Shown here: positions 32,892 through 57,516 of the stretch, one piece after another
Layout: every line of letters starts with the position of its first letter
Position numbering within the stretch: position 1 is the stretch's first letter
NCBI GenBank assembly: GCA_965243135.1
Contig: OZ251539.1
Coordinates: forward strand, 2,848,001-2,912,000
From: Alphaproteobacteria bacterium
Lineage (GTDB): Bacteria > Pseudomonadota > Alphaproteobacteria > MPNO01 > UBA830
Length of the DNA: 64,000 nt
Direction of reading: 5' to 3'
Made by a program: the position numbers and the translations under genes
The notes under the pieces: model-generated
What the model was told of the DNA's origin: nothing
What the model saw: only the letters and a program-made list of their open reading frames with translations
Databases searched by the model: none

Positions 32892-34457
32892 TCAGACGGT
32901 CTCGAACTCGAACCCGACGATGTTGCGCTCCTCCCGGCCGAACTCGATGCCGATCAGGTGAACCGGCACGCCCGGACGCCGGTACTTGTCCGCGTAGCCG
33001 CGCGCCCGAATCTGCGCCAGCGCCCGGCCTTCCGGCTTCCCGTCCGCGACCTTGAACTCGAACAGGTAGACGTTGCCGCCGTACAGGACCGTCAGGTCCG
33101 AGCGGCCGCGCGCCGTGCTCTCCTCGGCGCGGACGTCCATCCCCGCCGCCACGAAGTGCGAGTAGAACACGCTCGCGTAGTGCGCCTCGTAGCCCGCCAT
33201 CCCCGTGTTCGCGTACCACTCGTTCGGAATGCTCGCCAGAAACGCCCGGAACCGCCGCTCGAGGCCCGCGAAGTCGTTCGTCCGCATCAGGCGGCGCAGC
33301 TCCCGGCTCTCCGCCGCGACCGTGATATCCGGCGCCATCGCCTTCAGCAGGAGCGCGTTCAGGCTGCGCTTCACCTCCCGGTTCGGGTAGTCCAGCCGGA
33401 AGAGACGAACGCCCTCGTCCTGCTCTTCGCCGACGATGGTCAGGTAGCCGGTCTGGAACAAAAGCGTCTCGACGGGTATGCGGTCGATATCGATGGCCGA
33501 CAGCAGATCGTCGTCCGCGACCAGGTCCTCCAGGGCCGGCGGCGCGAACCGGCGCCGGGACAGAAGGTCGGCGAGGAAGGTCGGCGTGCCGCTCAGGAAC
33601 CAGTGGTTGCCGAACTCGTGCGTTTCGAAGAGAAGGAGGATGTCGAACGGGTTGTAGACCTTCTCCGCGCCGCGCCAGTTGTAGCCGTTGTACCAGCGCC
33701 GGACTTCGTTCCGGTCCAGGCCCTCGAGTTCCGGAGCGAAGACCGCGTCCAGTTCCGCGTCCGTGTAGCCGCAGATGGCGCCGAACCGCGGATCGAGGGT
33801 GATGTCGCGCAGGTTGTTCAGGCCCGAGAACAGGCCCGCCTGCGAGAACTTGCTCACGCCGGTAAGGAAGGCGAACCGGATATGCGCGTCGCAGTCCTTG
33901 ACGACGCTGTAGAAGCCGCGCAGGAAGTCGCGGTTGGCCAGCGCCCGTTCCCGGTCGCCGAGCGCGTCCAGGATCGGCTTGTCGTACTCGTCCACCAGCA
34001 CGACCACGCGCCGCCCGGACCGCTCGTGCAGTTCGGAGATCAGATGGTGAAGGCGGTCGGAGGCGTCCGGGTAGCCGCATCGGACGCCGGCGCGCTTTTC
34101 GGCGGCGTCGAGCTGCATCATCGCGTTCCTGTGCAGCCGGTCAGGGTCGCCGAGATTGCCGGAACCGAAACTGATCCGCACGACCGGATGGCGCGCCGAC
34201 CAGTCCCACTTGCCGTGCACGGCGAGGCCCCGGAACAGCTCTTCGCTTCCCTCGAATAACTCCTGCAGCGTGTCCACCAGCAAGCTCTTGCCGAACCGGC
34301 GCGGACGCGACAGGAAATAGTACTGACCCCCTTCGACGAGGCGGCGCACATGGTCCGTCTTGTCGACGTAGTAGCAGCCCAGCTCCCGGATTTTGCGGAG
34401 GGAGGTCAAGCCGGTCGGAAGCATGCGTCTCGTCATCAGAAGAGGGTAGGCCGCCAT
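32892..34457 (-). CDS. AAA-ATPase-like + PD-(D/E)XK nuclease protein, copy A1 (intact, 521 aa)
   Basis: YVDKT, RPRRFGKS Walker A, LVDEYDKP Walker B, TGVSKF, WYNGY, YNP, QTGYLTI, YPNxEV; nuclease E..GRSD..FEFK..QI..Y (Pfam AAA-ATPase_like + PDDEXK_9 architecture, from recall). Confidence 0.93.
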   Translation of the reverse strand: MAAYPLLMTRRMLPTGLTSLRKIRELGCYYVDKTDHVRRLVEGGQYYFLSRPRRFGKSLLVDTLQELFEGSEELFRGLAVHGKWDWSARHPVVRISFGSGNLGDPDRLHRNAMMQLDAAEKRAGVRCGYPDASDRLHHLISELHERSGRRVVVLVDEYDKPILDALGDRERALANRDFLRGFYSVVKDCDAHIRFAFLTGVSKFSQAGLFSGLNNLRDITLDPRFGAICGYTDAELDAVFAPELEGLDRNEVRRWYNGYNWRGAEKVYNPFDILLLFETHEFGNHWFLSGTPTFLADLLSRRRFAPPALEDLVADDDLLSAIDIDRIPVETLLFQTGYLTIVGEEQDEGVRLFRLDYPNREVKRSLNALLLKAMAPDITVAAESRELRRLMRTNDFAGLERRFRAFLASIPNEWYANTGMAGYEAHYASVFYSHFVAAGMDVRAEESTARGRSDLTVLYGGNVYLFEFKVADGKPEGRALAQIRARGYADKYRRPGVPVHLIGIEFGREERNIVGFEFETV

Positions 34458-34737
34458 GCCGGAACCGTCAAGGAGAGCGTCATTAACGCGTCAGTATGTC
34501 CGGTCCATGTACCAAATGTCTGTGTCCACCTTGCCGCCGGCCTCGGGCGTGTGGTGCCGGTGTGACCGCTCCGACACCCGAACTGACGGCAACCCTAACC
34601 CGGCGCGCGTCCCTTTCCCGCGAATATCCGTGAATTTACGGCGGGTTGCGGCGGACGGCACATCCCTTTTTTCGGGGCGTCGGAGAGAGTTGCGTTCGGG
34701 GAACTTTTCCGCGATACGCCGAACTTGCGCAGCGCTC

Positions 34738-35450
34738 GTAGCGTTCGCTACCCGGGTGATGGTCCGCATTGAGAACCGTCTTTCAGTCCCGCCGCAGGGG
34801 CTTCGGCATCCTTGACCGGCAGCGCGTTTTTCACGTCGAGCTTGCCGCGGCCCTGCGGTTTGCCGACCCGGACCCAGTTGGCTGCGCGGTAGTCAAGTGC
34901 CCGCGAATCGGGGGCTTTCGCAGAAGGTCTCAAGCAGTGCGGGACGCAAGGCGTAACGAAGGTTCCAGTCGTCGGGCAAACATCGTTTGCGCGAAGGGAT
35001 GCAAGATGTTTGATTCTGACCCGGGGCAGTAACCTTGCGTCGTTGACGACGAAAGGTGCACTGGCGGCGCACCGATGAACTTGTCCCGTGGCGCAATCTT
35101 CCACGCGGCGGGCGCGGCCAGCGGTTCGCCCTCTGCGGAGCGGACGAAGTGCTGCGCGCCGGGCATGGGCGTAAAGCCGAGGTAGCGGGAAGGCGGCCCG
35201 ACTCTCGCTGGCGTTGCGGACGGGTGTGCAGCGGACGGACCTGACGTTCGGGAGTTGGGAACAAGGGCGGTTCGGGAGACTGCGGAACGGCAAACGCGGG
35301 TGGACCGGCGCTGCGACAGCCGCAGAGGCCGTCGCGTTCCAGCAGAAACGCGGGTGCCTTTCAGGCCGCCGTTGGGCTTGCGCCAGTCGAGACGTTCGCG
35401 CGCGCGACAGGTGGGTTCCGTTGCGCGAGCCGGTATGAGCAGTCACGATA
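34738..35450 (-). mobile_element. IS66 right end with eroded DUF4338 gene (inverted copy of 21160-21988)
   Basis: GTAGCGTTCGCTACCCGGGTGATGGTC at 34738 matches the reverse complement of 21961-21988; YRAANWVRVGK.QGRGKLD, PALLETFCE. Confidence 0.8.
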
Positions 35451-35884: not shown

Positions 35885-36652
35885 GTGTCTAGCCGCAAAA
35901 GATACTCCCCGCTCTTGTGCAGACTACGCCCGAGCTCGGCGTCGCTTCCAGCCGTTGAGGAAAGCGATCTCTTCCGCGATTTTCTGCCTCTGACGCTTCT
36001 CGACGGTCTGCACGAAGCTGGCGGCCTCCAGAAGACTGTCGCTGGTTCCCGTACAGGCGAATCCGCGGCCGAGCAACTCCACATGAAGTTCGCCGCGTTA
36101 ATGCGCGTTGACGTCGGTGATCTCCAGCTCGCCGCGCGCGCTCGGCGCGATTTCGGACGCGACGACCTCGTTGTCGTAGAAATAAAGGCCCGTAACCGCC
36201 CACTGCGACTGGGGGCGGGCGGGCTTCTCGGCGACCGCGCGGCCGGACGCGTCGAGCTCGACCACGCCGTAGCGCTCCCGGAACCCCGTAGCCGAAAACC
36301 GTCGCCCCCTTGCGCCGGGAAGCCGCGTTTCGCAATTTCTCGGTCAGGCCGTGCCCGTAGAATATGTTGTCCCCGAGGGCCAGGGCGCAGGAATCGTCGG
36401 AAGTCCCTGCCGATGAGGAAGGCCTGCGCCAGCCCTTCGGGGCGCGGCTGCACGGCATGGCGAAGCGCGAGGCCCCACTGGCTGCCGTCGCCGAGAAGCC
36501 GCTCGAAGGCCGCGGCGTGCTGCGGCGCGCAAGAATGTCCCGAATTCCCGCCAGCGTGCTCAGCGGATAGCATCGGCTTGTCGTAGACCGGCAGGAGCTG
36601 CTTGCTTACCGCGCTCGTCAGCAGGCGCGTTCCTTCCCGCCGATGCCCTTCA
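35885..36652 (-). pseudogene. rfbA: Second, eroded copy of glucose-1-phosphate thymidylyltransferase
   Basis: Colinear with 30523-31413 but with many short deletions. Confidence 0.92.
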
Positions 36653-37330
36653 TCGCGGCGCTTCTCCGGGGAACGCGCCGCCCGCCGCCGGCCTGCGGTG
36701 CCCCTTGGCGTAGCGCTCGAGCGCTTCCTGCCGCAGGCCGCCGAACGCGGCCGGGATCCTGGCGTTGTCGAGTGCGCTGTACCGGGGGCGCAGGGCGCGG
36801 GCAGGGCGCTCGTCGCTCGCGCAGGGCGTCACGACGGCTCCGGCGAGGCGGACGATTTCGCGGGCGACCAGGTCGCCGCGCCGTCGTTGACCGCGTGATA
36901 AGGGACGCAGCCGCTCGCGAGAATCCGCAGAACGACGCGCGCCGCGTCCGCGGTGACGGTCGGCGACATGGTCTGGTCGTCGACCACCCGCAGCGCTCTC
37001 TTCCCCCTCCCGGCTATCGTTTCGACGAAATTCCCCCCCCCCCCCTTGCCGCTCGCTCCCGCCGTCCCGAACAGGGACGCCACGCGAAGGATGACGATGT
37101 TCTCGCAGTCCGGCCAGAGTTTCCCCCATCGCCCTGGAGGCGCCGTAGACGTTGACCGGCGCGAACGGATCCCGGTTCGAGGCCGGTGCGCCGGCCTCGC
37201 AGTCGTCGAGCGAGGTGAACCCCTCGGCGGTCCGTTCGGGGATTTCCGGAGGCATGAGGAAGACTCCGCGCGCCGTGAGGTTTTCCGTAAGGGCCGAGGG
37301 CGAACGGCGCGGCCGTCCTTCCCCGGCGGT
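36650..37330 (-). pseudogene. rfbD: dTDP-4-dehydrorhamnose reductase pseudogene
   Basis: [57 protein letters not shown]; C13 run at 37033-37045. Confidence 0.85.
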
Positions 37331-37631: not shown

Positions 37632-39197
37632 TTAGACGGTCTCGAACTCGAACCCGACGATGTTGCGCTCCTCCCGGCCGAACTCGATCCCGATCAGGTG
37701 GATCGGCACGCCCGGACTCCGGTACTTGTCCGCGTAGCCGCGCTCCCGTATCTGCGCCAGCGCCCGGCCTTCCGGCTTCCCGTCCGCGACCTTGAACTCG
37801 AACAGGTAGACGCCGCCGCCGTGCAGGACCGCAAGGTCCGAGCGTCCGCGCGCCGTGCTCTCCTCGGCGCGGACGTCCATCCCCGCCGCCACGAAGTGCG
37901 AGTAGAACACGCTCGCGTAGTGCGCCTCGTAGCCTGCCATGCCCGTGTTCGCGTACCACTCGTTCGGGATGCTCGCCAGGAACGCCCGGAACAGCGCCTC
38001 GAGGCCCGCGAAGTCGTTCGTGCGCATCAGGCGGCGCAGTTTCCGGCTTCCCGCTGCGACCGTGACGTCCGGCGCCATCGCCTCCAGCAGGAGCGCGTTC
38101 AGGCTGCGCTTCACCTCATGGTTCGGGTAGTCCAGCCGGTAAAGAAGCGCGTCGTCGTCCAGTTCCTCGTCGGCGATGGTCAGGTAGCCGGTCTGGAACA
38201 GAAGCGCCTCGACGGGGATGCGGTCGACGTCGATCGCCGACAGCAACGCGTCGTCCGCGATCATGCCCTCCAGGTCCGGCGCCGCGACCTGGCGCCGCGA
38301 CAGAAGGTCGGCGAGAAAGGTCGGCGTGCCGGTCCGGAACCAGTGCGCCTCGAACCGGCGGCGCCGGAAAAGCAGCAGAATATCGTGCGGGTTGTAGACC
38401 CTCTCCGGTCCGAGCCAGTTGTAGCCGTTGTACCAGCGGCGGATCTTGTCCCGGTCCAGGCCCTCGAGTTCCGGGGCGAAGACCGCGTCCAGTTCCGCGT
38501 CCGTGTAGCCGCAGATGGCCGAGAACTCCGGCTCCAGCGTGACGTCGATCAGGTTGTTCAGGCCCGAGAACAGGCCCGCCTGCGAGAACTTGCTCACCCC
38601 CGTCAGGAAAACGAAACGGAGATGCCTGTCGTTGTCCTTGATCATCGCGTAGAAGCCGCGCAGGAAATCGCGGTTGGCCAGCGCCAGTTCCCGGTCGCCG
38701 AGCGCGTCCAGAATCGGCTTGTCGTATTCGTCGACCAGCACGACCGCCTGCTGCCCGGTGCGCTCGTGCAGGGCCTCGATCAATTCCCCGAAACGGTTCG
38801 ACGCCTCGACAGCGCCCGGTTCGAGGCCGGCGCACCTCTCCGCCGCCGCCAGCTGCCGTTCCACGCTTCTCCGAACGAAGTCCGGGGAGTCGAAATTGCC
38901 GCCGCCAAAGCTGATCCGCACGACAGGATGGCGCGCCGACCAGTCCCACCTGCCGTGTACGGCGAGATCACGAAACAGTTCCTCGCTTCCCTCGAACAGT
39001 TCCTGCAGCGTGTCCACCAGCAGGGTCTTGCCGAACCGGCGCGGACGCGACAGGAAATAGTAATCGCCCTCTTCGACGAGGCGGCGCGCATGGTCCGTCT
39101 TGTCGACGTAGTAGCAGTCCCTCGTCCGGATTTTCCGGAGGGAGGTCAAGCCGGTCGGAAGCATGCGTCTCGTCATCCGGAGAGGATAGGCCGCCAT
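37632..39197 (-). CDS. AAA-ATPase + PD-(D/E)XK nuclease, copy A2 (intact, 521 aa)
   Basis: All motifs as A1; start MAAYPL at 39197 by alignment with A1/A5. Confidence 0.93.
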   Translation of the reverse strand: MAAYPLRMTRRMLPTGLTSLRKIRTRDCYYVDKTDHARRLVEEGDYYFLSRPRRFGKTLLVDTLQELFEGSEELFRDLAVHGRWDWSARHPVVRISFGGGNFDSPDFVRRSVERQLAAAERCAGLEPGAVEASNRFGELIEALHERTGQQAVVLVDEYDKPILDALGDRELALANRDFLRGFYAMIKDNDRHLRFVFLTGVSKFSQAGLFSGLNNLIDVTLEPEFSAICGYTDAELDAVFAPELEGLDRDKIRRWYNGYNWLGPERVYNPHDILLLFRRRRFEAHWFRTGTPTFLADLLSRRQVAAPDLEGMIADDALLSAIDVDRIPVEALLFQTGYLTIADEELDDDALLYRLDYPNHEVKRSLNALLLEAMAPDVTVAAGSRKLRRLMRTNDFAGLEALFRAFLASIPNEWYANTGMAGYEAHYASVFYSHFVAAGMDVRAEESTARGRSDLAVLHGGGVYLFEFKVADGKPEGRALAQIRERGYADKYRSPGVPIHLIGIEFGREERNIVGFEFETV

Positions 39198-39588
39198 GCC
39201 GGAACCGTCAAGGAGAGCGTCATTAACGAGCCGTTTGCGCTGTGCCATTTTTTGTCGGCCTGCCGCCCGGCCGGCACCCCGCGAACCGCTCCGCCCGCCC
39301 GCCGGCAGCCCGCAAGGGCCTCGCGGGTGCTCAGTCTTGAGAACAAAAGTCGAATAACCGGTTGCCGCGCCGCAAACCCGGTGCAAGCCGGGCCGTGGCC
39401 TGAACACAGGCGGCCAATCGGGGGGGACGGCGGCTGGCCGGCCGTGGGGTGGAATCTGCGAAAATCGCAGTCCCGGCGCGGAGAATTCGCAGTTTTCCGT
39501 ACCCGAATCGGGGTAAAAAAAATTCCGCACCCCGGAAAGCTGTCCGCATTTCAAGATCTTACGAACAGCGCACGCGGCTCTTAACTCG

Positions 39589-40880: not shown

Positions 40881-41061
40881 TGCGGCGCGGGACCCGGAGA
40901 CGCGCCCGGCCCGCGAGCGCCTGCAGGAAGACGCCGCCGGACGCGGCCTCCTCGGCCGGGCGGCTCGTCAAGCCGCGCGACGAACCGGCGGAACCGGCTG
41001 TCGTCGCGGGCCGAACCGCGGGCGGCGTTCTTTCGCGGAGGCGGCCGTGACGGGAAGCCGT

Positions 41062-43350
41062 TCAGGCGGGCTCGCAGCCGACGACGTTGCGCTCCTCGCG
41101 GCTGAACTCCACCAGGTGGACCGAACGCCCGAAGCGGCGGTACTTGTCCGCGTAGCCCTTCTCCCGCAGCTGCGCGAGCGCGGTCCCCTCCCGCCCGCGC
41201 TCCACCACCTTGAACTCGAACAGGTAGACGCGCCCGCCGGCGCGGATCGCCATGTCGGCGCGCCCCCGGCTGCCGCTGTCCTCCGCCACCGGCTCTAGGC
41301 CCTCCATCAGGAAGCAGCTGTGGATGACGCTCGCGTAGTGGGCCTCGTACTTCGCGACCGGGCTGTTCATGTACCACTGGTGCGGGGCGAAGACGCCGCG
41401 GAACAGGGTTTCGAGACGCTCGAAGTCGTTCGCCGCCAGCACCCAGCCGCAGGTTCTCCGTCTCCTCGCGGGCCTCGTCCGGGAGCAGTTCTTCCAGCAG
41501 GGCCTCGCCCAGGCTCTGGCGCACCTCGAGGTTCGGGTAGTCCAGCCGGTAGCGCCCGTCCTCCTCGCCGGCGATGGGTAGAGTCGAGGACTGGCGCGTT
41601 AGCTTTAGGGTCCGGGTTCCGTCGCTTTCGCTCCGGGCCTCAGTCCGGCTCCCGTGGCCACGTTTCCAGTCCCCGCTCTCCGAACCGGACGTGCGGATTT
41701 CCCGCGCCTCCAGCCCTCGCCCACGGATGGATTGTCAGCGTTCCCAAAAACGGCCGGTTTTCCGGACCCGGGAGTTGCACCGTCTCCCATATTTTCCGCC
41801 TGTTCTCGCTTTCCAACCCGTCGCCGAACCTGTTTACGCCTCGACGACCCCGGCCTCTCGACCGGGTTCCTTCGCTTGTGACGCTTCCGGGATCTCTGGC
41901 ATGTAGTCGGTTGTTAGGCATAGCCAGATCCCTTCTCCCTTGCGGCGCCCTTCCTCGCGCCCCTTTCCTCCGCCGGCGTTACCCGGCTTCTCCGGTACTA
42001 CGGGCCTCTCCGCCACCCGCCGGCCTGCCCCTCGCGGGGTTCCGGTTGACTCGTGCGCGTCACCGACAGGGCTTCCCGTGTTGCTGCTTCCTTCATCTTC
42101 CATGCGTGCCGACACCCCGGCGGAAACGGTCGGTGCTCTTGTCGTTCTCTTCCCGACCGTCGGCGGCTTTCCCCTAGGAGGGTCAGCTCCCGCATTGACC
42201 GTTTCGAGGCCTGGTTCACTGCTCGTTTCGGCCCGCATGTTCGCTGAGCGGCCTTCGCCGCCCTTTCCCAGAGTGCTTCAGCCTACCCTCCGTAAACCGC
42301 CCTGGCCGCTACCAACCGGAACGACAGTTGTTGGGTGGGATTCGCACCCACGAAAGCGCCTTTCCACGGCGCACTGAGGTAGCCGGTCTGGAACAGAAGG
42401 GCCTGGACCGACATCCTGTCCACGTCGAAGGCCGAGAGCAGGCTCTCGCCATGCCGTCCAGGCGAGGAGTGGGCAGGTCGCGGCGCGCCAGCGTCTCCAC
42501 CAGGAAGGTCGGCGTGCCGCTCTCGAACCAGTACGGGCGGAACTCGCGCCGCCGAAACAGCAGCAGGAGGCCGAACGGATTGTAGACCCTCTCCGGCCCG
42601 CGCCAGTTGTAGCCGTTGTACCAGCGACGGACCTCGTCCCGGTCCAGGCCATCGAGTTCCGGGGCGAAGACCGCGTCCAGTTCCGCGTCCGTGCAGCCGC
42701 AGATATCCGAGAATTCCGGCTCCAGCGTGACGCAGGTTGTTCAGGCCCAGAACAGGCCCGCCTTCGAGAATTTGCTCACTCCCGTCAGGAAAACGAAACG
42801 GAGATGCCTGTCGCAGGCCACCCCGTACAGGCTGCGCAGGAAGTCCCGGTTGGCCCGCGCCAGCTCCCGGTCGCCGAGCGCGTCCAGAATCGGCTTGTCG
42901 TACTCGTCCACCAGAACCACCGCCCGCTGCCCGGTGCGTTCGTGCAGGTCCGCGATCAGTTCCCGGAAGCGGACCGAAACTCTGGCGCCGCCCGGCGCCG
43001 GCCCGCCTCTCCGCCGCCTTCAGTTGCGATTCCGTTTCTTCCCGAACTCCGTCCGGGTCGCCGAAATCGCCCCCGCCGAAATCCAGCCGCACGACAGGAT
43101 GACGCATCGACCAGTCCCACCTGCCGTGCACGGCGAGGCCCCGGAACAGCTCCTCGTTTCCCTCGAACAACTCCTGCAGCGTGTCCACCAGCAGGGTCTT
43201 GCCGAACCGGCGCGGACGCGACAGGAAATAGTACTTGCCCCATGAGGCGGCGCGCATGCTCCGTCTTGTCGACGTAGTAGCAGTCCATCCCCCGGATCTC
43301 CCGGAGGGAGGAAAAGCCGAGCATGCGTTTCGTCAGAGGGTAGGCCGCCG
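41062..43350 (-). pseudogene. AAA-ATPase/PD-(D/E)XK copy A3, eroded, interrupted by a group II intron; divergent nuclease end
   Basis: 5' exon ends ..QTGYL-A at 42375; 3' exon resumes CC-IAGEEDGRYRLDYPN at 41577; C-terminus AEDSGSRGRADMAIRAGGRVYLFEFKVVE. Confidence 0.88.
41578..42374 (-). ncRNA. Group II intron remnant lacking an intact RT ORF (797 nt)
   Basis: 5' GTGCG; DIII-like CCCGTAGTACCGGAGAAGCCGGGTAACGCCGGCGGAGGAAAGGG; DV-like GGGAAATCCGCACGTCCGGTTCG; 3' end CTCGACTCTAC; precise removal restores the host Thr codon. Confidence 0.88.
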
Positions 43351-43398
43351 CGCCCGTCAAGAAGTCGGCGGCGGCAGGCCTGTCCGCGTCCCCTGGCG

Positions 43399-44195
43399 CT
43401 GCCTGTGCCCCGTTTTGCTGGACTGACAGTATTCATCTTGAAGTTCCTGAAGGAAAGCCATAGCGGCGAGTTGAGCGTAGCCGACCGGTTGCGAACCTGG
43501 CGGGTTGCGCTTGAAGTGGCCGCCCAAGGCCTGCCTGTCCCCCACAATTTGATGCTGAACGCTACTAACAATATTCATCCCGAAGTTCCTGGTGAAAGGC
43601 CGCGAGTTGGAGGTAGCCGTACCACATCAACTCCGCGCCTGGCGGGTCTCGCTTGCGCTTGAAGTGGCCGCCGAGGGTGGCGACCAGGAAGACAGCCTCT
43701 CCGAGGTTTTTCGGTGCGCTCTTGCGCCGCGGCGAACAGCGTCAGCACCTGGAGTTCGACGTCCGAGAACAGGATCTCGGGCGGCAGGTCAGGTAATTCC
43801 CGTCCGAGGCGTGCCATGAATGCGCCAAGCGACGACCATGGCGGTGGCGCGCTGCAGGCGCTCGGCCGTCCGGTTCTCGAGTTCCTTGCAGCCGGACTTC
43901 AAGACGCGAAAATAATCTTCAATTCTCCAGCGCAGGCCGTACCAGGGCGTTCGGCGTTGTCGGCGCTTTCGACCGGCAGCGTCGTCAACAGGAACCACTC
44001 CAGGCGTTCGGCGCGGGGGAGCTTTCTCGCGGACATGGACGATCGTCACGGGGGCCTTGCGCTTCGCCGGCAATTCGACTTTGAGGTAGCGCAGCCGTGG
44101 CCTGACGCTTTGGTCGCATGGCCCTCGCGGCCTGCTTGCTTGCGCGTGCGCTCAGACGCTTGACCTCGACGACCCGCTTGCCCTGCGCCGGGCTC
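43399..44195 (-). mobile_element. IS4-family transposase 3' fragment with terminal IR
   Basis: WYGLRWRIEDYFRVLKSGC motif; end CTGCCTGTGCCCCGTTTTGCTGGACT as at 53038. Confidence 0.8.
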
Positions 44196-45502: not shown

Positions 45503-45527
45503 GCCCGTCAAGGAGAGCGTCGGGCGC

Positions 45528-45833: not shown

Positions 45834-45863
45834 GCCTGCGTCCGAACGGGACGGCTCCCGGCT

Positions 45864-47797: not shown

Positions 47798-49358
47798 TCA
47801 GGCGGTCTCGAACTCGAACCCGACGATGTTGCGCTCCTCCCGGCCGAACTCCACCCCGATCAGGTGGACCGGCACGCCCGGACGCCGGTACTTGTCCGCG
47901 TAGCCGCGCTCCCGAATCTGCGCCAGCGCCCGACCTTGCGGCTTCCCGTCCGCGACCTTGAACTCGAACAGATAGACGTTGCCGTTGTACAGGAGCGTCA
48001 GGTCCGAGCGGCCGCGCGCCGTGCTCTCCTCCGCACGGACGTCCATGCCCGCCGCCACGAAGTGCGAATAGAACACGCTCGCATAGTGAGCCTCGTAGCC
48101 CGCTATGCCCGTGTTCGCGTACCACTCGTTCGGAATGCTCGCCAGGAACGCCCGGAACAGATTCTCGAGGCCCGCGAAGTCGTTCGCCCGCATCAGGCGG
48201 CGCAACTCCCGGCTCCCCGCCGCGACCGCGACGTCCGGCGCCATCGCCTTCAGCAGAAGCGCGTTCAGGCTGCGCTTCACCTCCTGGTTCGGGTAGTCCA
48301 GCCGGTAGAGGTGCGTGTCCTCGTCCCGCTCCTCGTCGACGATGGTCAGGTAGCCGGTCTGGAACAGCAACGCCTCGACGGGAATGCTGTCGACGTCGAT
48401 GACCGACAGCAGGTCGTCGCCCGCGGCCAGGTCCTCCAGGGCCGGCGGCGCGAACCGGCGCCGCGACAGAAGGTCGGCGAGGAAGGTCGGCGTGCCGGTC
48501 CGGAACCAGTGCTCCTCGAACTCGCGGCGCCGGAAAAGCAGAAGGACATCGTACGGGTTGTAGAGTTTCTCCGCGCCTCGCCAGTTGTAGCCGTTGTACC
48601 AGCGGCGGACCTTGTCCCGGTCCAGGCCCTCGAGTTCCGGGGCGAAGACCGCGTCCAGTTCCGCGTCCGTGTAGCCGCAGATGGACGAGAACTCCGGCTC
48701 CAGCGTGACGTCGATCAGGTTGTTCAGGCCCGAGAACAGGCCCGCATGCGAGAACTTGCTCACCCCCGTCAGGAAAACGAAACGGAGATGCCTGTCGTTG
48801 TCCTTGATCATCGCGTAGAAGCCGCGCAGGAAGTCGCGGTTGGCAAGCGCCAGTTCCCGGTCGCCGAGCGCGTCCAGAATCGGCTTGTCGTATTCGTCCA
48901 CCAGCACGACCACGCGTCGCCCGGCGCGCTCGTGCAGGGCCTCGATCAATTCCCCGAAACGGTTCGACGCCTCGGCAGCGCCCGGTTCGAGGCCGCCGCG
49001 CCTCTCCGCCGCCGCCAGCTGCCGTTCCACGCTTCTCCGAACGAAGTCCGGGGAGTCGAAATTGCCGCCGCCGAAGCTGATCCGCACGACGGCGCGCCGA
49101 CCAGCCCCACCCGTCGTGCACCGCGAGATCACGAAACAGCTCCTCGCTTCCCTCGAACAGTTCCTGCAGCGTGTCCACCAGCAGGGTCTTGCCGAACCGG
49201 CGCGGACGCGACAGGAAATAGTACTGGCCCCCTTCGACGAGGCGGCGCACATGGTCCGTCTTGTCGACGTAGTAGCAGTCCAACTCCCGGATTTTCCGGA
49301 GAGAGGTCAAGCCGGTCGGAAGCATGCGTCTCGTCATCTGGAGAGGATAGGCCGCCAT
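47798..49358 (-). pseudogene. Copy A6, full length except one 5-nt deletion near 49090
   Basis: 1561 nt versus 1566 nt for intact copies; HP codons of SARHPVVR lost. Confidence 0.9.
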
Positions 49359-49429
49359 GCCGGAACCGTCAAGGAGGAGGCGGAGTCCGTCGGCCGAACG
49401 TCGGCCCGGAGTTCCCGTGTCGGCGCGGG

Positions 49430-49636
49430 AGACTGTTCTTGAGAGAGCGGCTATCCGTGCCGCAAACGGCCACGGTCGCGGCGTCGAGCCGCAGTTCGGC
49501 GCGCGCGACCCGCCAGGCGCGGTGCATGGCCGGCGTCGCCGCCCGGCTCCAGGAAGCGGCAGTGGCGGCCGCCGCAAGCGCGCGGTCGGTCGGCGCTTTT
49601 CGCGAAGGCGCCGCCTGCGCGGGACGGCTCCCGGCC
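49430..49636. repeat. ~200-bp spacer shared with 37420-37631
   Basis: Near-identical sequence downstream of A2 and A7. Confidence 0.85.
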
Positions 49637-51159
49637 TTAGACGGTCTCGAACTCGAACCCGACGATGTTGCGCTCCTCCCGGCTGAACTCCACCCCGATC
49701 AGGTGGACCGGCACGCCCGGACGCCGGTACTTGTCCGCGTAGCCGCGCTCCCGAATCTGCGCCAGAGCCCGGCCTTCCGGCTTCCCGTCCGCGACCTTGA
49801 ATTCGAACAGGTAGACGCCGCCGCCGTGCAGCACCGCAAGGTCCGAACGGCCGCGCGCCGTGCTCTCCTCCGCGCGGACGTCCATCCCCGCCGCCGCGAA
49901 GTGCGAGCACGCTCGCGTAGTGGACCTCGTAGCCCGCCATGCCCGTGTTCGCGTACCACTCGTTGCTCGCCAGGAACGCCCGGAACCGCCGCTCGAGGCC
50001 CGCGAAGTCGTTCGTCCGCATCAGGCGCCGCAACTCCCGGCTCTCCGTCGCGACCGCGACGTCCGGCGCCATCGCCTCCAGCAGGAGCGCGTTCAGGCTG
50101 CGCTTCACCTCATGGTTCGGGTAGTCCAGCCGGTAGAGGGGCGCGTCCTCGTCCCGCTTCTCGTCGGCGACGGTCAGGTAGCCGGTCTGGAACAGCAGCG
50201 CCTCGACGGGAATGCGGTCGACGGCCGACAGCAGGTCGTCGTCCGCGATCATGCCCTCCAGGGCCGGCGCCGCGACCCGGCGCCGCGCCAGAAGGTCGAC
50301 GAGAAAGGTCGGCGTGCCGCTCTGGAACCAGTACGGGCGGAATCTGCGCTTGTCGAACAGCAGCAGGATGTCGTGCGGATTGTAGACCCTCTCCGGTCCG
50401 AGCCAGTTGTAGCCGTTGTAGCAGCGGCGGACCTTGTCCCGGTCCAGGCCGTCGAGTTCCGGGGCGAAGACCGCGTCCAGCTCCGCGTCGGTGTAGCCGC
50501 ATACGGCGCCGTAGCGCTCGTCCAGCGTGATGTCGTTCAGGTTGTTCAGGCCCGAGAACAGGCCCGCCTGCGAGAACTTGCTCACCCCCGTCAGAAAAAC
50601 GAAGCGGAGATGCTCGTCGCAATCCTTGATCGTTCCGTACAGGCTGCGCAAGAAGTCGCGGTTGGCCCGCGCCAGTTCCCGGTCGCCGAGCGCGTCCAGG
50701 ATCGGCTTGTCGTACTCGTCCACCAGAACGACCGCCCGCTGCCCGGTGCGCTCGTGCAGGGCCTCAATCAATTCCCCGAAACGGTTCGACGCCTCGACGG
50801 ATCCCGGTTCGAGGCCGGCGCGCCTCTCCGCCGCCGCCAGCTGCCTTTCCACGGTTATCCGAACCCCGTCCGGGACGACGAAATTGCCCCTGCCGAAGCT
50901 GAGCCGCACGACGGCGCGCCGACCAGTCCCACTCGCCGTGCACGGCGAGGCCCCGGAACAGTTCCTCGCTTCCCTCGAACAGCTTCTGCAGCGTGTCCAC
51001 CAGAAGAGTCTTGCCGAACCGCCGCGGACGCGACAGGAAATAGTACTTGCCCCTCTCGACGAGGCGGCGCGCATGGTCCGTCTTGTCGACGTAGTAGCAG
51101 TCCATCCCCCGGATCTCCCGGAGGGAGGAAAAGCCGATCGGAAGCATGCGTTTCGTCAT
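49637..51159 (-). pseudogene. Copy A7, frameshifted
   Basis: MTKRMLPIGFSSLREIRGMD start; short deletions near 50912, 50220, 49965, 49908. Confidence 0.9.
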
Positions 51160-51555
51160 TCGAAGAGGGTAGGCCGCCGCGCCGGAGCCGTCAAGGAGAG
51201 CGTCGGGCGCGCGTCAATTTCTTTGCATTGACGCCAGGAAGGGCCTGCGCTTTCTGCATGTACGCGCCGTGTCCGCGTCCCAAGACTTGGAAACCATTCT
51301 GCGGCCGGCGTCTCCGCCGATTGTCCGGAGATCTTCGCCGGCGGACCGCCCAATTCCGCAGATGCCCAAACCCGGTTGCGCAATGGGACCGGGGCATGGG
51401 CCGTGCCTTCAACTGACTCGAAAGGTGAACGGCGAGACGGGTCCGCTGCCGCGGAAACGGCCGTTCCCGACGAAGGGCATGGCGACCTGCGGCGCGGTCG
51501 GCCGGCGCCTTTCGCGGAGGCGCCGCCTGCGCCCGAACGGAACCGGCTCCCGGCT

Positions 51556-52990
51556 TCAGACGGTCTCGAACCCGACGATGTTGCGCTCCTCCCGGCCGAA
51601 CTCGATCAGGTGGACCGGCACGCCCGGACGCCGGTACTTGTCTGCGTAGCCGCGCTCCCGAATCTGCGCCAGCGCCCGGCCTTGCGGCTTCCCGTCCGCG
51701 ACCTTGAACTCGAACAGGTAGACGCCGCCGCCGTACAGGACCGCAAGGTCCGAACGGCCGCGCGCCGTGCTCTCCTCGGCGCGGACGTCTATCCCCGCCG
51801 CCGCGAAGTGCGAGCACGCTCGCGTAGTGCGCCCCCGCCAAGCCCGTGTTCGCGTACCACTCGTTGCTCGCCAGGAACGCCCGGAACAGCCGCTCGAGGC
51901 CCGCGAAGTCGTTCGCCAGGCGGCGCAGCTCCCGGCTCTCCGCCGCGACCGCGACGTCCGGCGCAGCAGGGGCGCGTTCAGGCTGCGCTTCACGGTTCGG
52001 GTAGTCCAGCCGGTAGAGGGGCGCGTCCTCGTCCTGCTCTTCGCCGGCGACGGTCAGGTAGCCGGTCTGGAACGGCAACGCCTCGACGGAAATGCGGTCG
52101 ACGGCCGACAGCAGGTCGTCGTCCGCGAACATGCCCTCCAGGGCCGGCGCCGAGATCCGGCGCCGCGCCAGCGTCTCGACCATGAAGGTCGGCGTACCGC
52201 TCAGGAACCAGTAGTTGCCGAACCCGCGCTCGGCGAGCAGCAGCAGGATGCCGAACGGATTGTAGAGCCTCTCCGGCCCGCGCCAGTTGTAGCCGTTGTA
52301 CCAGCGGCGGATTTTCTCCCGGTCCAGGCCATCGAGTTCTGGAGCGAAGACCGCGTCCAGCTCGTCGTCCATGTAACCGCAAATGTCCGAGAACTCCGGC
52401 GCCAGCGTGATGTCGCGCAGGTTGTTCAAGCCAGAGAACAGGCCCGCCAACTTGCTCACCCCCGTCAGGAAAACGAAACGGAGATGCCTGTCGTTGTCCT
52501 TGATCATTGCGTAGAAGCCGCGCAGGCAGTTGCGGTTCGCCAGTTCCCGGTCGCCGAGCGCGAACCGGCTTGTCGTACTCGTCCACCAGCACGACCGCCC
52601 GCTGCCCGGTGCGCTCGTGCAGGACCAATTCCCCGAAACGGTTCGACGCCTCGACGGGTTCGAGGCCGGCGCGCCTCTCCGTCGCCGCCAGCTGCCGTTC
52701 CACGAGGTCCGGGGAGTTGCCGCCGCCGAAGCTGATCCGCACGACGGCGCGCTGACCAGTCCCACCCGCCGTGCACGGCGAGGCCCCGGAACAACTCCTC
52801 GCTTCCCAGCTCCTGCAGCGTGTCCGCCAGCAAGCTCTTGCCGAACCGGCGCGGACGCGACAGGAAATAGTACTTGCCCCACGAGGCGGCGCGCATGCTC
52901 CGTCTTGTCGACGTAGTAGCAGTCCATCCCCCGGATCTCCCGGAGGGAGGAAAAGCCGAGCATGCGTTTCGTCAGAGAGTAGGCCGCCGC
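51556..52990 (-). pseudogene. Copy A8, heavily eroded
   Basis: Colinear, many short deletions; 5' end and IS4 junction nearly identical to those of A3. Confidence 0.9.
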
Positions 52991-53037
52991 GCCCGTCAAG
53001 AAGTCGGCGGCGGCAGGCCTGTCCGCGTCCCCTGGCG

Positions 53038-55155
53038 CTACCTGTGCCCCGTTTTGCTGGACTGACAGTATTCATCTTGAAGTTCCTGAAGGAAAGCCAT
53101 AGCGGCGAGTTGAGCGTAGCCGACCGGTTGCGAATCTGGCGGGTTGCGCTTGAAGTGGCCGCCCAGGGCGGCGATCAGGGAGACGGCCTCTCCGAGATTT
53201 TTCGGCGCGTGCTTGCGGCGCGGCGAAGATCGCCAGCATCCGGAGTTCGACGTCCGAGAACGGGATCTCGGGCGGCAGGTCGGACAATTCCCGTCCGGGG
53301 CGGGCCCGAATCCGCCAGGCGACGACCATTGCGGCGGCGCGCTGCAGGCGCTCGGCCGTCCGGTTCTCCAGGCAGCCGGACTTCAGGACCCGGAGATAAT
53401 CTTCAATTCCCCAACGCAGGCCGTACCACGGCGTTCGGCGTCGTCGCCATTCTCGACCGGCAGCGTCGTCAACAGGAACCGCCGGTCGGCTTCGGTTGGC
53501 GGGTTTTTCTCGCGGACATGCATGATCGTCACCTCGACGGGCGCCTTGCCCTTCGCCGGCAACTCGACCTTGAGGTAACGCAGCGCGACCGCGGCCTGAC
53601 GGGGCTCTCGCACGGCCTTCGCGGCCTGCTTGCTGGCGCGCGCGCTCAAACGCTTGAGGACGCGCTTGCCCCGCGCCGGGCTCTTCCGCACCTTGTCGAA
53701 CAGCTTGTCGGCATCGTCCTTGCCGAGAACCCGGTTCGTCTTCGCCCACACCAGGAGTTCCACTCCCGGCGTCCGCTCGCGGCACTCGACGAACGGCGAA
53801 GTCCGCCTCCCGGGACGCCGACCGCCTGCACGCCGTCGAGCGCCGCGGCAGCCTCGGCGCTGCGGCAGCCTCGGCGCTGCGGCAGCCTCGGCGCTGCGGC
53901 CCTCGGCCCTTCTTCTTCTCGCGAGGCTTGTCCTTCTCCGCGCCCGGCTGCGGCGCGTCGAACGCCGCCCGCAGAACCCCAAGCGGCAGCCCTTCCGCGT
54001 TCACCGCGGCGTGCAGGTTCAGACCGCGGGCCCCGGCGCCGGTCTGGTCCCCAACCCTTCCCCCACTTCGCGAAGTTCAGCGCGCTGCTGTCCTGCACGC
54101 ACAGCACCGTCCTTTCCCCCTGCCCGCAGCGTCTGGCGCCGGTGCAGGATGTCCTCCACCGTCACCGCTTCGCTGTCCGGCGTGCAGACGGTAGTAAGCC
54201 CTGGCTCGGTTCCCCCTCGCGGCGCCCGTGAATGCCGACGCCTCCGCCTGGCGCCAGGTCACCAGGCGCGCATCCCGGCGCACCGCCGAACTCCTGCTCC
54301 GCCCAGTTCTCCCGACCGGCGCCAACCTCCAACGGCACAAGTGGCGCGCGAGGCTCGCGCGCCCGCCAGTCCGCGTTCGTGACAGCCTTCGGCGTTGCCG
54401 CGTGGCCCTGTCGCCCCCGGCCGGCGGTCTCGCCACGCCGCCGCCCGAAAACTCGTTCCCGCATGCTGGTCTTTGTCTCCGGACGGGCGGTAGCGTTCCT
54501 CGAAATCGCCCCCCACCCTGCGGACCACGCCGCCCAGCACATGCGAGGTGCGGCACTCGACGCCGGGCCGGAAAGCGGCGCAAGCCGGCCGCCCGGTGCA
54601 AATGGGCGCGCCTTCCCGCGTCGTCCCAGCCGAAGGTCGCGGCACTCGAGCCTGTGCGCAGAGGCTGCGAACCCGACGGCCCCCAGCCAGCCATGCGCCG
54701 ACCCTGCCAGGTGCCGCAATTGACAACCGACCAACGGACCGGCGCCGCGCTCCTCCTCCGGCATCGTGTTCCATGCGCCGCTCGTCACCGGCGCCAGCTC
54801 CGGACCCTCGACCGCACCGACTTCCTCCGGTACGCTCTTCGGCGGAGGAACCGGTTCCGCAAGACGCCGCGGGCGCCGTGCGCCGCCGCCCGTCGGCAAC
54901 GGCAGCGAAATCCGCCCCGCCGCCTCGAACTCCGCCAACGCCTTCAGGCAGCCCGCTCGCTGCAGGCGGCCAAGCCCGTCCCGAAACCCGAACGCTACGC
55001 GACCTCGCTGCGACGAGCGAAGACCTCGTTCGCCAGCAAGCCTTGCAAGCGCGTAAAATCGCCCTGAAGGCTTTGCCGAATCTGATTCTGAACCTCCATG
55101 CCGGGCACCGTAGCGAATCGGCTGGCCAGAGTTCAGCAAAACGGGGCAACGGCAG
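53038..55155 (-). mobile_element. IS4-family element encoding an eroded DUF4338-transposase fusion
   Basis: 26-bp imperfect TIRs (CTACCTGTGCCCCGTTTTGCTGGACT / AGTTCAGCAAAACGGGGCAACGGCAG); GAGPLVGCQLR, WAEQEFGGA, LCVQDSSALNF, READF, YGLRWGIEDY.RVLKSGC; 17-bp triplication at 53845-53895. Confidence 0.85.
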
Positions 55156-55239
55156 GGCAAGCCGAAGGTCAAGGCCGACGACGACGGCAAGCCGCGGGCG
55201 ACGTCTCCGGAACCTCGCAGCGCGGCTCCCGGGAGCCAC

Positions 55240-55950
55240 AACTTCTCCCGGTCCAGGCCCTCGAGTTCCGGGGCGAAGACCGCGTCCAGCTCCGCGTCAG
55301 TGTAGCCGCAGATGGACGAGAACTCCGGCTCCAGCGTGACGCAGGTTGTTCAGGCCCGAGAACAGGCCCGCATGCGAGAACTTGCTCACGCCGGTAAGGA
55401 AGGCGAACATGCGCGTCGCAGTCCTTGACGACGCTGTAGAAGCCGCGCAGGAAGTCGCGGTTGGCCAGCGCCCGTTCCCGGTCGCCGAGCGCGGACCGGC
55501 TTGTCGTACTCGTCCACCAGCACGACCGCACGCCGCCCGGCGCACTCGTGCAGTTCGGAGATGGTGAAGGCGGTCGGAGGCGTCCGGGTAGCCGCATCGG
55601 ACGCCGGCGCGCTTTTCGGCGGCGTCGAGCTGCATCATCGCGTTCCTGTGCAGCCGGTCGGGATCGTCGAGCTTGCCGGAACCGAAGCTGATCCGCACGA
55701 CGGTGCGCCGACCAGTCCCACCCGCCGTGCACGGCGAGGCCCCGGAACAGCCCCTCGCTCCCCTCGAACAGCTCCTGCAGCGTGTCCACCAGCAGGCTCT
55801 TGCCGAACCGGCGCAGACGCGACAGGAAATAGTACTTACCCCCCTTCGACGAGGCGGCGCGCATGGTCCGTCTTGTCGACGCAGTCCATCCCCCGGATCT
55901 CCCGGAGGGAGGAAAAGCCGAGCATGCGTTTCGCCGCGAGAGTAGGCCGC
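55240..55950 (-). pseudogene. Copy A9, eroded 5' half
   Basis: Carries the A1-type block DPDRLHRNAMMQLDAAEKRAGVRCGYPDASDR with the A7/A8-type N-terminus. Confidence 0.88.
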
Positions 55951-56079
55951 CCCGCCCGTCAAGGAGGAGGCGGGTCTGCAGGCCGAACGCCGCGCCGGAG
56001 TTCCCACGCCTCCCCTGGCGGCGCGTCCCGTCGTGCCGCCTGCCGAAACGTCCGAACGGGACGTCGGCGGCTCCCGGCT

Positions 56080-57516
56080 TCAGACGGTCTCGAACTCGAA
56101 CCCGACGATGTTGCGCTCCTCCCGGCCGAACTCGATGCCGATCAGGTGGACCGGCACGCCCGGACTCCGGTACTTGTCCGCGTAGCCGCGTTCCCGAATC
56201 TGCGCCAGCGCCCGGCCTTCCGGCTTCCCGTCCGCGACCTTGAACTCGAACAGGTAGACGCTGCCGCCGTACAGGACCGCAAGGTCCGAACGGCCGCGCG
56301 CCGTGCTCTCCTCCGCGCGGACGTCCATCCCCGCCGCCACGAAGTGCGAGTAGAGCACGCTCGCATAGTGCGCCTCGTAGCCCGCCATGCCCGTGTTCGC
56401 GTACCACTCGTTCGGAATGCTCGCCAGGAACGCCCGGAACAGCCGCTCGAGGCCCGCGAAGTCGTTCGCCCGCATCAAGCGGCGCAACTCCCGGCTCCCC
56501 GCCGCGACCGCGACGTCCGGCGCCATTGCCTCCAGCAGAAGCGCGTTCAGGCTGCGCTTCACCTCATGGTTCGGGTAGTCCAGCCGGTAAAGAAGCGCGT
56601 CGTCGTCCAGTTCCTTGTCGGCGATGGTCAGGTAGCCGGTCTGAAACAAAAGCGCCTCGACGGGAATGCGGTCGATGTCGATGGCCGACAGCAGCGCGTC
56701 GTCCGCGATCATGCCCTCCAGGGCCGGCGCCGAGACCCGGCGCCGCGACAGAAGGTCGGCGAGGAAGGTCGGCGTGCCGGTCCGGAACCAGTGCGCCTCG
56801 AACTGGCGGCGCCGGAAAAGCAGCAGGATGTCGTGCGGGTTGTAGACCCTCTCCGATCCGAGCCAGTTGTAGCCGTTGTACCAGCGCCGGACCTTGTCCC
56901 GGTCCAGGCCATCGAGTTCCGGAGCGAAGACCGCGTCCAGCTCCGCATCCGTGTAGCCGCAGATGGCCGAGAACTCCGGCTCCAGCGTGACATCGATCAG
57001 GTTGTTCAGGCCCGAGAACAGGCCCGCCTGCGAGAACTTGCTCACCCCCGTCAGAAAAACGAAACGGAGCTGCCTGTCGCAGGCCTTGATCGCCCCGTAC
57101 AGGCTGCGCAGGAAGTCGCGGTTGGCCAGCGCCAGTTCCCGGTCGCCGAGCGCGTCCAGAATCGGCTTGTCGTATTCGTCGACCAGAACGACCGCCCGCT
57201 GCCCGGTGCGCTCGTGCAGCGCCTCGATCAATTCGTGGAAACGGACCGCCGCCCCGGCGGGGCCCGGTTCGAGGCCGGCGCGCCTCTCCGCCGTCGCCAG
57301 CTGCCTTTCCACGGTTCCCCGAACTCCGTCCGGGCCGTCGAAGCGGCCCACGCCGCTGAAATCCAGCCGCACGACCGGGTGGCGTGCCGACCAATCCCAC
57401 CTGCCGTGCACGGCGAGGCCCCGGAACAGCTCCTCGCTCCCCTCGAACAACTCCTGCAGCGTGTCCACCAGCAGGCTCTTGCCGAACCGGCGCGGACGCG
57501 ACAGGAAATAGTACAT
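56080..57516 (-). CDS. Copy A10, open but lacking the first ~40 residues
   Basis: Homology begins at YYFLSRPRRFGKS; in-frame ATG at 57516; remainder has no frameshift. Confidence 0.82.
   Translation of the reverse strand: MYYFLSRPRRFGKSLLVDTLQELFEGSEELFRGLAVHGRWDWSARHPVVRLDFSGVGRFDGPDGVRGTVERQLATAERRAGLEPGPAGAAVRFHELIEALHERTGQRAVVLVDEYDKPILDALGDRELALANRDFLRSLYGAIKACDRQLRFVFLTGVSKFSQAGLFSGLNNLIDVTLEPEFSAICGYTDAELDAVFAPELDGLDRDKVRRWYNGYNWLGSERVYNPHDILLLFRRRQFEAHWFRTGTPTFLADLLSRRRVSAPALEGMIADDALLSAIDIDRIPVEALLFQTGYLTIADKELDDDALLYRLDYPNHEVKRSLNALLLEAMAPDVAVAAGSRELRRLMRANDFAGLERLFRAFLASIPNEWYANTGMAGYEAHYASVLYSHFVAAGMDVRAEESTARGRSDLAVLYGGSVYLFEFKVADGKPEGRALAQIRERGYADKYRSPGVPVHLIGIEFGREERNIVGFEFETV

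Follow-up and report, generated by a model that had tools for sequence, protein, structure and literature searches.

How did a dozen neighbouring copies of one gene come to differ in a patchwork of short blocks, and do they form a set of silent cassettes that feeds an expressed gene? The question is raised by a window of 64,000 nucleotides (nt) from an alphaproteobacterial chromosome (contig OZ251539.1, positions 2,848,001 to 2,912,000; the genome is a single contig of 6.10 Mb with 65% GC). Searches of this window with tblastn and blastn locate 12 loci of a gene of the DUF1703 family, predicted to encode an ATPase fused to a nuclease, all on the - strand between window positions 32354 and 57516. 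A preliminary description of the sequence had read the copies as mosaics shuffled by gene conversion, analogous to antigenic-variation cassettes, and the analysis presented here supports that interpretation in part. We find that the copies have been mosaicked by recombination, and that the array is the largest cluster of a recombining DUF1703 family of 166 loci, which probably does not operate through cassettes and whose broken copies are decaying.

Exchange of segments among the copies

The array starts at 32354 with a fragment (A0), not at 32892, the point from which it had previously been described. Copies A4 to A8 are tandem units with a period of ~1.8-1.9 kb; in the larger intervals between copies are other multi-copy repeats, together with rmlA and rmlD in a second, decayed version. 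Three copies in the array (A1, A2 and A5) are intact 521-codon genes; A0, A3a/A3b, A4, A7, A8 and A9 are broken or fragmentary. A unit consists of a promoter-like element abutting the start codon and a gene of 514-521 codons. The loci are as follows.

32354..32713, - strand: A0, N-terminal DUF1703 fragment, frameshifted
32892..34457, - strand: A1, intact 521-codon DUF1703 gene, with AAA-ATPase_like at residues 14-210 and PDDEXK_9 at residues 423-514
37635..39197, - strand: A2, intact DUF1703 gene
41018..41577, - strand: A3b, C-terminal piece belonging to the second of the C-terminal types (sub2)
42377..43364, - strand: A3a, N-terminal piece of the split copy, disrupted by small deletions
44162..45502, - strand: A4, broken by several 5-6-nt deletions and 3'-truncated near codon 457
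45864..47429, - strand: A5, intact DUF1703 gene, used as the coordinate reference
47798..49358, - strand: A6, full-length apart from a single 5-nt deletion at the ATCCG site (junction near 49090)
49637..51180, - strand: A7, broken by 4 deletions (5, 6, 6 and 5 nt)
51550..52990, - strand: A8, heavily decayed, with 21 deletions of 4-12 nt and 73 substitutions relative to the nearest intact copy
55200..55966, - strand: A9, N-terminal fragment, broken
56083..57516, - strand: A10, in frame but missing the promoter-like motif and codons 1-44

Translations were aligned codon by codon to A5, and all the block variants and copy assignments of the preliminary description were reproduced. Block 1 reads DPDRLHRNAMM in A1 and A9, NFDSPDFVRRSV in A2 and A6, NFV(V/I)PDGVRITV in A4, A5 and A7, and RFDGPDGVRGTV in A10. 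For block 2 the variants are FYSVVKDCD (A1, A9), FYAMIKDND (A2, A6, A8) and LYG(A/T)IK (A4, A5, A7, A10), and for block 3 they are RDITLDPRFG (A1, A4), ID(V/I)TLEPEFS (A2, A5, A6, A10) and NDITLDERYG (A7). Block 4 is GAEKLYNPYDV in A5 and A6 and ERVYNPHDI in A2, A7 and A10.

Recombination among the copies was evident from several tests. The pairwise homoplasy index (PHI) of the seven alignable array copies was 0.424, compared with 0.510 +- 0.011 in 1000 site permutations (p<=0.001), and subsets of four and five copies gave the same outcome. Maximum-likelihood trees of nt 140-480 and 481-780 group (A2, A6, A8) and (A5, A7, A10); trees of nt 781-1140 and 1141-1566 group (A2, A10), (A7, A8) and (A5, A6). 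This incongruence of per-block trees, a check that had been named beforehand, was confirmed by approximately unbiased (AU) tests, in which block 1 rejects the 3' trees (p 4e-4 and 2e-4) and block 3 rejects the 5' trees (p <1e-50).

The exchange reaches well beyond the array. Using blastn, the family was found at 166 loci that amount to 216 kb, or 3.5% of the genome, and fall into 81 clusters, of which the array with its 12 loci is the largest. Array copies are 91-95% identical to their best whole-gene relative, and their 120-nt windows are 97-100% identical to partners that change along the gene. The nearest partner lies within the array in 27 of 175 such windows (6 of the 124 candidates are array copies, which gives an expectation of ~5%), indicating that most exchange partners lie elsewhere in the chromosome. 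Several of the partners outside the array are broken copies, and some windows of intact copies are 99-100% identical to broken ones; these shared segments are compatible with transfer in either direction.

A locus was scored as intact when a single stop-free tblastn match covered residues 12-512 or more, and by this definition 94 of the 125 near-full-length loci are intact and 31 are broken. The intact copies contain 24 allele classes at block 1, 5 at block 2, 10 at block 3 and 14 at block 4, joined in 68 distinct four-block combinations. Across the family the mean r2 between sites is 0.34 at distances of up to 20 nt and 0.03 at >800 nt, and this decay of linkage disequilibrium, together with the PHI and AU tests, bears out the earlier proposal that segmental recombination shuffles the blocks.

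The two halves of the gene differ in population structure. Identity to A1 separates two subfamilies of 32 and 57 intact copies, between which an index similar to the fixation index Fst is 0.01-0.09 over nt 1-810 and 0.34-0.74 over nt 811-1566, indicating that one pool of ATPase halves is carried on two C-terminal types. The array copies have one of these types, except for fragment A3b, whose C-terminal half is of a diverged type with 55% amino acid (aa) identity to A1. In A7, three of the four nearest relatives of the windows spanning nt 1-240 are classed as sub2 by their C-terminal half. Taken together, these patterns indicate that segments pass between the copies and paralogs throughout the chromosome, by homologous recombination (ectopic gene conversion), the first 270 codons behaving as one freely mixing pool of old allele classes and the last 250 codons as two discrete types.

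Family-wide homology extends from ~35 nt upstream of the annotated ATG to the stop codon, and the upstream piece has the form TTGACG-N17-TAYYCT-N6-ATG, whose ATG corresponds to codon 8. This codon is the point at which homologues from other phyla begin, and its ATG is likely the real start of A1. The motif occurs five times in the window and in none of 100 shuffles, at the following positions.

34432..34471, - strand: promoter-like motif of A1, TTGACG-N17-TACCCT-N6-ATG
39172-39211, - strand: promoter-like motif of A2
47404-47443, - strand: promoter-like motif of A5
49333-49372, - strand: promoter-like motif of A6 (also picked up by a consensus scan)
51155-51194, - strand: promoter-like motif of A7

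In the whole genome it is found 88 times, always at gene starts of the DUF1703 family, and the reversed control is found 0 times. To judge from the motif, each copy appears to bring its own promoter, and transcripts from it, six nt before the codon-8 ATG, would possibly be leaderless. Some broken copies carry 5-6-nt deletions inside the motif. A family with 94 intact copies is a poor fit to one expression site fed by silent cassettes.

The predicted protein and its variable blocks

Pfam assigns the protein only two domains, PF09820 (AAA-ATPase_like; residues 14-210; 202 bits in A1 and 198.8 bits in A5, cut-off 26.1) and PF08011 (PDDEXK_9; residues 423-514; 67.2 bits in A1 and 68.6 bits in A5, cut-off 25.5), a pair that corresponds to the DUF1703 family. 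The family description of Knizewski et al. (2007, PMC1913061) includes an atypical Walker A motif (RPRRFGKS), a Walker B motif (DEYD) and a sensor-2 region (GxxVYNP). In the translations aligned to A5, the array copies contain SRPRRFGK(S/T), VDEYD and G(A/P)E(K/R)(V/L)YNP, and their Walker, sensor-2 and nuclease residues fit that description. Block 4 is the sensor-2 region itself. Four nuclease residues (D454, E467, K469 and Q482) do not vary among 31 aligned sequences and are present in A1, A2, A5, A6, A7, A8 and A10.

An AlphaFold model built from the 31 sequences has a predicted local distance difference test score (pLDDT) of 83 and a predicted template modelling score (pTM) of 0.81. In VIA comparisons, residues 11-367 of the model superpose on the archaeal AAA+ ATPases SSO1545 (2fna, Z 15.0) and PAB2304 (2qen, Z 14.7; 280 aligned, root-mean-square deviation 4.0). 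Superposition is weaker on STAND proteins and on Orc1/Cdc6 (Z 10-12.6 overall, including CED-4, Apaf-1, plant NLRs and Avs5), with Z 11-12.6 for RPP1/plant NLRs, CED-4 and Apaf-1 and Z 10-11 for Orc/Cdc6. Residues ~300-521 match the PD-(D/E)XK domains of CidB/CinB (Z 9.9-10.9). The DUF1703 protein differs from the archaeal AAA+, Orc and STAND proteins in its sequence (8-13% identity) and in its fused C-terminal PD-(D/E)XK nuclease, and from Avs and NLR proteins in that a C-terminal repeat sensor (TPR, LRR or WD40) was found neither among the Pfam matches nor in the model, the nuclease being the last part of the protein, up to residue 521. By sequence, A1 has no relative among solved structures. 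The model suggests that the gene product is an Orc/Cdc6- or STAND-like P-loop ATPase with a helical/winged-helix middle and a C-terminal PD-(D/E)XK nuclease.

Two of the variable parts can be placed on this model. Residues 97-150 are modelled as a two-helix insert that follows strand 92-96 and precedes the Walker B strand (151-156), and block 1 sits in this insert, at what we take to be the position of the DNA-contacting initiator-specific motif of Orc/Cdc6; residues 281-330 form a low-confidence linker. A tentative proposal, to which we give somewhat less than even weight, assigns the protein to a conflict or defence type of nuclease that would oligomerise and be driven by ATP, its recognition surfaces being the variable helical insert and the linker (aa 270-330).

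Selection on the copies was assessed by the Nei-Gojobori method, which gave overall ratios of non-synonymous to synonymous change (dN/dS) of 0.46 and 0.50. As the preliminary description had stated, the last ~110 residues are nearly constant, with few differing positions among A1, A2, A5, A6, A7, A8 and A10. In subfamily 1 the nuclease (aa 411-520) has a dN/dS of 0.09-0.27, a proportion of synonymous differences (pS) of 0.10-0.18 and a mean residue entropy of 0.18, compared with an entropy of ~0.3 in the ATPase core and 0.91 at aa 97-150. The nuclease is thus near-constant because of purifying selection, and it is so only within one of the two C-terminal types.

In the variable windows dN/dS is 0.6-1.15, the highest 20-codon windows being aa 91-110 (1.0), 281-300 (1.14) and 301-320 (1.15). 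Over aa 101-150 both pS (0.31-0.33) and the proportion of non-synonymous differences (pN, 0.20-0.25) are raised, and the variable blocks resemble old allele classes that are weakly constrained. The excess of non-synonymous change that had been anticipated for these blocks is not clearly seen in this Nei-Gojobori window analysis: 20-codon windows reach at most ~1.15 and in block 1 pS is raised alongside pN. These values indicate purifying selection that holds the Walker motifs and the nuclease nearly constant, and point to near-neutral evolution of the helical insert (aa 97-150) and the linker (aa 270-330).

Could the conversion nonetheless have been selected for new combinations of ATPase recognition surfaces, with the broken copies serving as a donor reservoir like pilE/pilS or vlsE? 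Pilin and vlsE antigenic variation works by gene conversion from silent cassettes, and the array resembles it in the segmental, homology-driven exchange among many similar copies that generates combinatorial variants. The 24, 10 and 14 allele classes of blocks 1, 3 and 4, the 68 combinations in 94 intact copies, the location of block 1 in the two-helix insert before the Walker B strand, the raised pS in block 1 that points to old allele classes, and the windows of intact copies that are 99-100% identical to broken ones would all suit such a scheme. We consider it improbable all the same. There is no expression-site architecture and no single expression site, 94 of 125 near-full-length copies being intact and 88 having promoter-like starts of their own; window dN/dS is at most ~1.15; and the segments shared by broken and intact copies would fit transfer in either direction. 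Moreover, the broken copies lose promoter and start by the same small deletions, up to 17 of 5-7 nt in one copy, which is decay and not upkeep. As regards the suggestion that broken copies act as donors, near-identical segments are indeed shared between broken and intact copies, but the broken copies are plainly in decay (21 deletions against 73 substitutions in A8). The analogy to antigenic-variation cassettes is not supported, in view of the predominance of complete genes with their own promoter-like starts, the lack of an evident surface role and the absence of a clear non-synonymous excess in the window analysis. We favour a mosaic pattern that would result from recombination and uneven constraint, rather than from an expression site supplied by silent cassettes.

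Several points weigh against this reading of a non-cassette family encoding a defence-type nuclease. The blocks are not fully independent (Cramer's V 0.26-0.90, compared with 0.28-0.50 in permutations), rate heterogeneity can inflate both PHI and the tree tests, and the public contigs on the array reach ~310 nt at most among those listed, a length at which distant blocks cannot be phased on single molecules. In block 1, pS (0.31-0.36) and pN are raised together, a mark of old allele classes that have been kept, which could reflect balancing or diversifying selection at the level of the family, as the preliminary description proposed, and pairwise window dN/dS near 1 can mask positively selected sites. 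The promoter is a match to a consensus, and the defence-type function is deduced from fold and architecture. No PADLOC model matches the protein (0 families for A1), and A1 has no NCBIfam match.

Short deletions in the broken copies

The decay of the broken copies takes an unusual form. Compared with the intact majority, the 31 broken copies have 56 deletions of 5 nt, 54 of 6 nt, 4 of 7 nt, 27 of 1-4 nt and 5 longer ones, and 7 insertions; in the 94 intact copies, 6-nt deletions number 23 and 3-nt deletions only 2. Several sites have been hit repeatedly, and in A5 coordinates these hot spots are ATCCG at nt 269 (14 copies), ATACG at 471 (8), a CATCGA-type site at 963 (7), ATTCCG/ATCCCG at 1228 (6), TACGA at 1267 (12) and GATCGG at 1503 (7). 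At a further hot spot, nt 1291, seven copies from both subfamilies are affected and the deleted letters differ. Identical sequence contexts are deleted in some copies and kept in others.

The same signature is found outside the family. A self-comparison of the genome with the family masked located 2331 insertions or deletions (indels): 424 of 1 nt, 91 of 2 nt, 88 of 3 nt, 26 of 4 nt, 768 of 5 nt, 758 of 6 nt, 117 of 7 nt and 59 of 8-12 nt. It is also seen in the window itself, where a decayed duplicate can be compared with its intact paralogs.

35891..37171, - strand: decayed rmlA and rmlD duplicate between A1 and A2; compared with the intact paralogs, 5-7-nt deletions number 16 in rmlA and 10 in rmlD
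30560-31598: intact rmlA/rmlD region used for the comparison

Between the decayed rmlA (35891-36838) and the intact rmlA ~5 kb away there are 16 gaps, all of them in the decayed copy and all of 5-7 nt, and the decayed rmlD has 10 gaps of 5-7 nt compared with one in its partner.

Many of the deletions are anchored on AT or TT. Among deleted 5-mers, ATCCG, ATTCG, ATCTG, ATCGA, TTCGA, ATCGG and ATGCG are 10-25x enriched, and 278 of 443 five-nt and 234 of 410 six-nt events can be placed with an AT start on one strand. Microhomology is 0-1 nt in 368 of the 443 five-nt events. This argues against slippage, as does a tandem-duplicate context in only 30 of 1526 events. Deletion at quasi-palindromes or hairpin loops, which two sites had seemed to suggest, was likewise rejected, with stems of >=3 pairs at 1.2% of the 1526 events and 2.3% of 7630 controls. 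We found no transcription-strand bias (AT at the sense 5' end in 157 cases and at the 3' end in 148). At five of eight hot spots, two carriers at most have another carrier as nearest flank neighbour (2/14, 0/8, 0/7, 0/7 and 0/8), and the spread of single deletions by gene conversion was mostly rejected; site 1267 is partly shared (7 of 12 carriers). The carriers mostly lack common flanking haplotypes, which indicates recurrent events at hot spots.

Known enzymatic sources were also considered. Ku-dependent end joining was rejected, as the 98.8%-complete genome has no match to Ku (PF02735; the control was positive in Bacillus subtilis), and short deletions dependent on type IB topoisomerase were rejected on 0 matches to PF01028 in the genome and the rarity of tandem-duplicate contexts. 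The DUF1703 protein is unlikely to be the deletion agent itself, given that homologues in genomes of other phyla show an ordinary indel spectrum: in 242 homologue pairs analysed with the same kind of script, indels of 1-6 nt number 736, 254, 106, 44, 13 and 15. Among relatives, one broken copy examined in G004, a genome of the same genus, has gaps of 1 nt and 21 nt. In G002, a second species, four copies (L001-L004) share a 7-nt deletion at the nt-269 hot spot (codons 87-92) and are all thereby broken; their pairwise gaps, in counts that are not independent, are 28 of 1 nt, 7 of 2 nt, 2 of 5 nt and 11 of 6 nt. Orthologues in G002, G003 and G004 have only 65-73% DNA identity, too distant for a comparison of 6-nt indels in single-copy genes.

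Because an assembly with 166 similar loci might yield chimeric consensus, polishing errors or mixed strains, we asked whether the mosaics, the deletions or both are artefacts. The genome may be metagenome-derived (its DNA is found in sponge metagenome runs), its contamination estimate is 3.08% and the contigs are too short to phase the blocks. Several observations speak the other way. Across 47600-53100, contigs of four runs from four studies fill 29-30 of 30 bins at >=97% with no inserted or deleted letters reported, a threshold that short contigs with a 5-nt difference would fail. Among 32 of 3274 records, gap-free contigs cross five of 27 deletion junctions, namely A6-269, A8-201, A8-1267 and A8-1291 in run X13, which may be the source sample of the genome, and A7-1228 in run X17 from another study; none of these listed contigs has 31 nt on both sides. 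Furthermore, a context that is deleted in one copy can be kept unchanged in another, the homologues of other genomes give an ordinary spectrum with the same script, and the long single-copy open reading frames (ORFs) within the window are intact. An artefact is accordingly very improbable, and the 5-7-nt deletions are real with good but not full confidence.

The broken copies are pseudogenes whose decay proceeds mainly through lineage-specific deletions of 5-7 nt. It is conceivable, if rather doubtful, that this lineage has a new sequence-targeted DNA-deletion activity that removes 5-7 nt, usually beginning at an AT or TT dinucleotide, repeatedly at the same hot spots, without microhomology, hairpins or tandem repeats, and is the main inactivator of dispensable DNA. 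The dispensable DNA so struck would, as an equally speculative part of this proposal, comprise the DUF1703 copies, insertion-sequence-like repeats and the duplicated rmlA/rmlD. Such an activity could for example belong to a nuclease or recombinase with a site preference that cuts twice at close spacing before the ends are resealed, and it might act as a brake on repeat expansion.

A search of the literature for the 5-7-nt deletion signature gave nothing relevant. Fungal repeat-induced point mutation produces C-to-T changes, and topoisomerase-1-dependent deletions are 2-5 nt long. The process seen here resembles the former in being sequence-biased and acting mainly in duplicated or dispensable DNA, and the latter in producing short deletions without microhomology. 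It differs from them in that the changes are deletions and not C-to-T, are 5-7 nt long, fall outside tandem repeats and occur in a genome in which no gene for type IB topoisomerase or Ku was found. Duplication itself would be no more than a candidate trigger.

Other features of the window lie between or beside the copies.

41600..42370, no strand assigned: multi-copy repeat of ~800 nt that splits A3
53020..55190, no strand assigned: unrelated multi-copy repeat between A8 and A9, with many small gaps relative to its own copies
57581-59110, + strand: secretin-family gene (PF00263, weak PF03958), divergent beside A10, which marks the array end

The ~800-nt repeat interrupts A3 near gene nt 1016-1056 and adjoins split DUF1703 halves elsewhere in the genome, for example near 1.15, 1.93, 3.62 and 4.12 Mb; its presence beside split halves at several places indicates that the interrupted copy has itself multiplied. 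An ORF of 1140 codons across A6 and A7 (47652-51074, - strand) was rejected as a fusion gene, its codon-position GC pattern being that of an alternative frame kept open by high GC. The GC content of the window dips to 43% at 2001-4000 and 50-56% at 22001-30000, compared with a background of 65-75%, and these low-GC stretches may be recently acquired DNA.

Distribution and relation to known systems

The family is present in five of 31 genomes of the same order: G000 has 198 first-look candidates, G004 has 23 matches, G030 has 9, G002 has 9 broken-copy pieces and G003 has 1. Copies within the genome studied here are 62-88% identical in protein. Relatives with ~60% protein identity are spread over sponge-type genomes of many phyla, assembled from metagenomes and labelled Vicinamibacterales, Latescibacterota, Gemmatimonadota, Pseudomonadales, Spirochaetia and Binatia. 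Three homologue pairs (L056/L065, L019/L025 and L018/L019) have 92-96% DNA identity over ~1.6-1.7 kb across phylum labels, which reflects either very recent transfer between phyla or binning errors. Sequencing runs that contain array DNA come from six studies and are labelled as sponge metagenomes or with coded host organisms; the bacterium that carries the array is sponge-associated. A literature search on the family in sponge symbionts gave nothing relevant.

A DUF1703 expansion has been described in Cardinium hertigii cCpun, which has 25 complete paralogs whose intragenic recombination was detected with RDP4, PHI and a split-network analysis (Siozios et al., 2019, PMC6387759). In that article a horizontal origin was inferred, the function is given as unknown and secretion was predicted by the authors. 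As here, the PF09820 and PF08011 protein occurs as many recombining paralogs in one host-associated bacterium. The differences lie in scale and similarity, with 166 loci here compared with 25 complete paralogs in Cardinium and 62-88% protein identity compared with a mean of 39%, and in features reported here, namely tandem arrays, an N-terminal allele pool shared by two C-terminal types and a conserved promoter-like start.

PF09820 is also listed for RdrA of the RADAR system in a table of a review (PMC10952713). The RdrA ring (8hr8) gives a weak Foldseek match (E 1.1e-3, template modelling score 0.19). We rejected the array as a RADAR system, since A1 matches 0 PADLOC families, its neighbours are copies, repeats and rml pseudogenes with no adenosine-deaminase partner, and a nuclease is fused instead.

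In summary, compared with the published case of Cardinium, the mosaic array is a further and much larger example of a recombining DUF1703 expansion, occupying 166 loci and 3.5% of the chromosome. The pool of ATPase halves that is shared by two types of nuclease half makes the insert at aa 97-150 and the linker candidates for specificity determinants in a family without an assigned function. The AT-anchored 5-7-nt deletion signature is the most unusual observation made here. If it proves to be a true enzyme activity, it would constitute a new bacterial mutational process and would change how pseudogene formation in symbionts is read.

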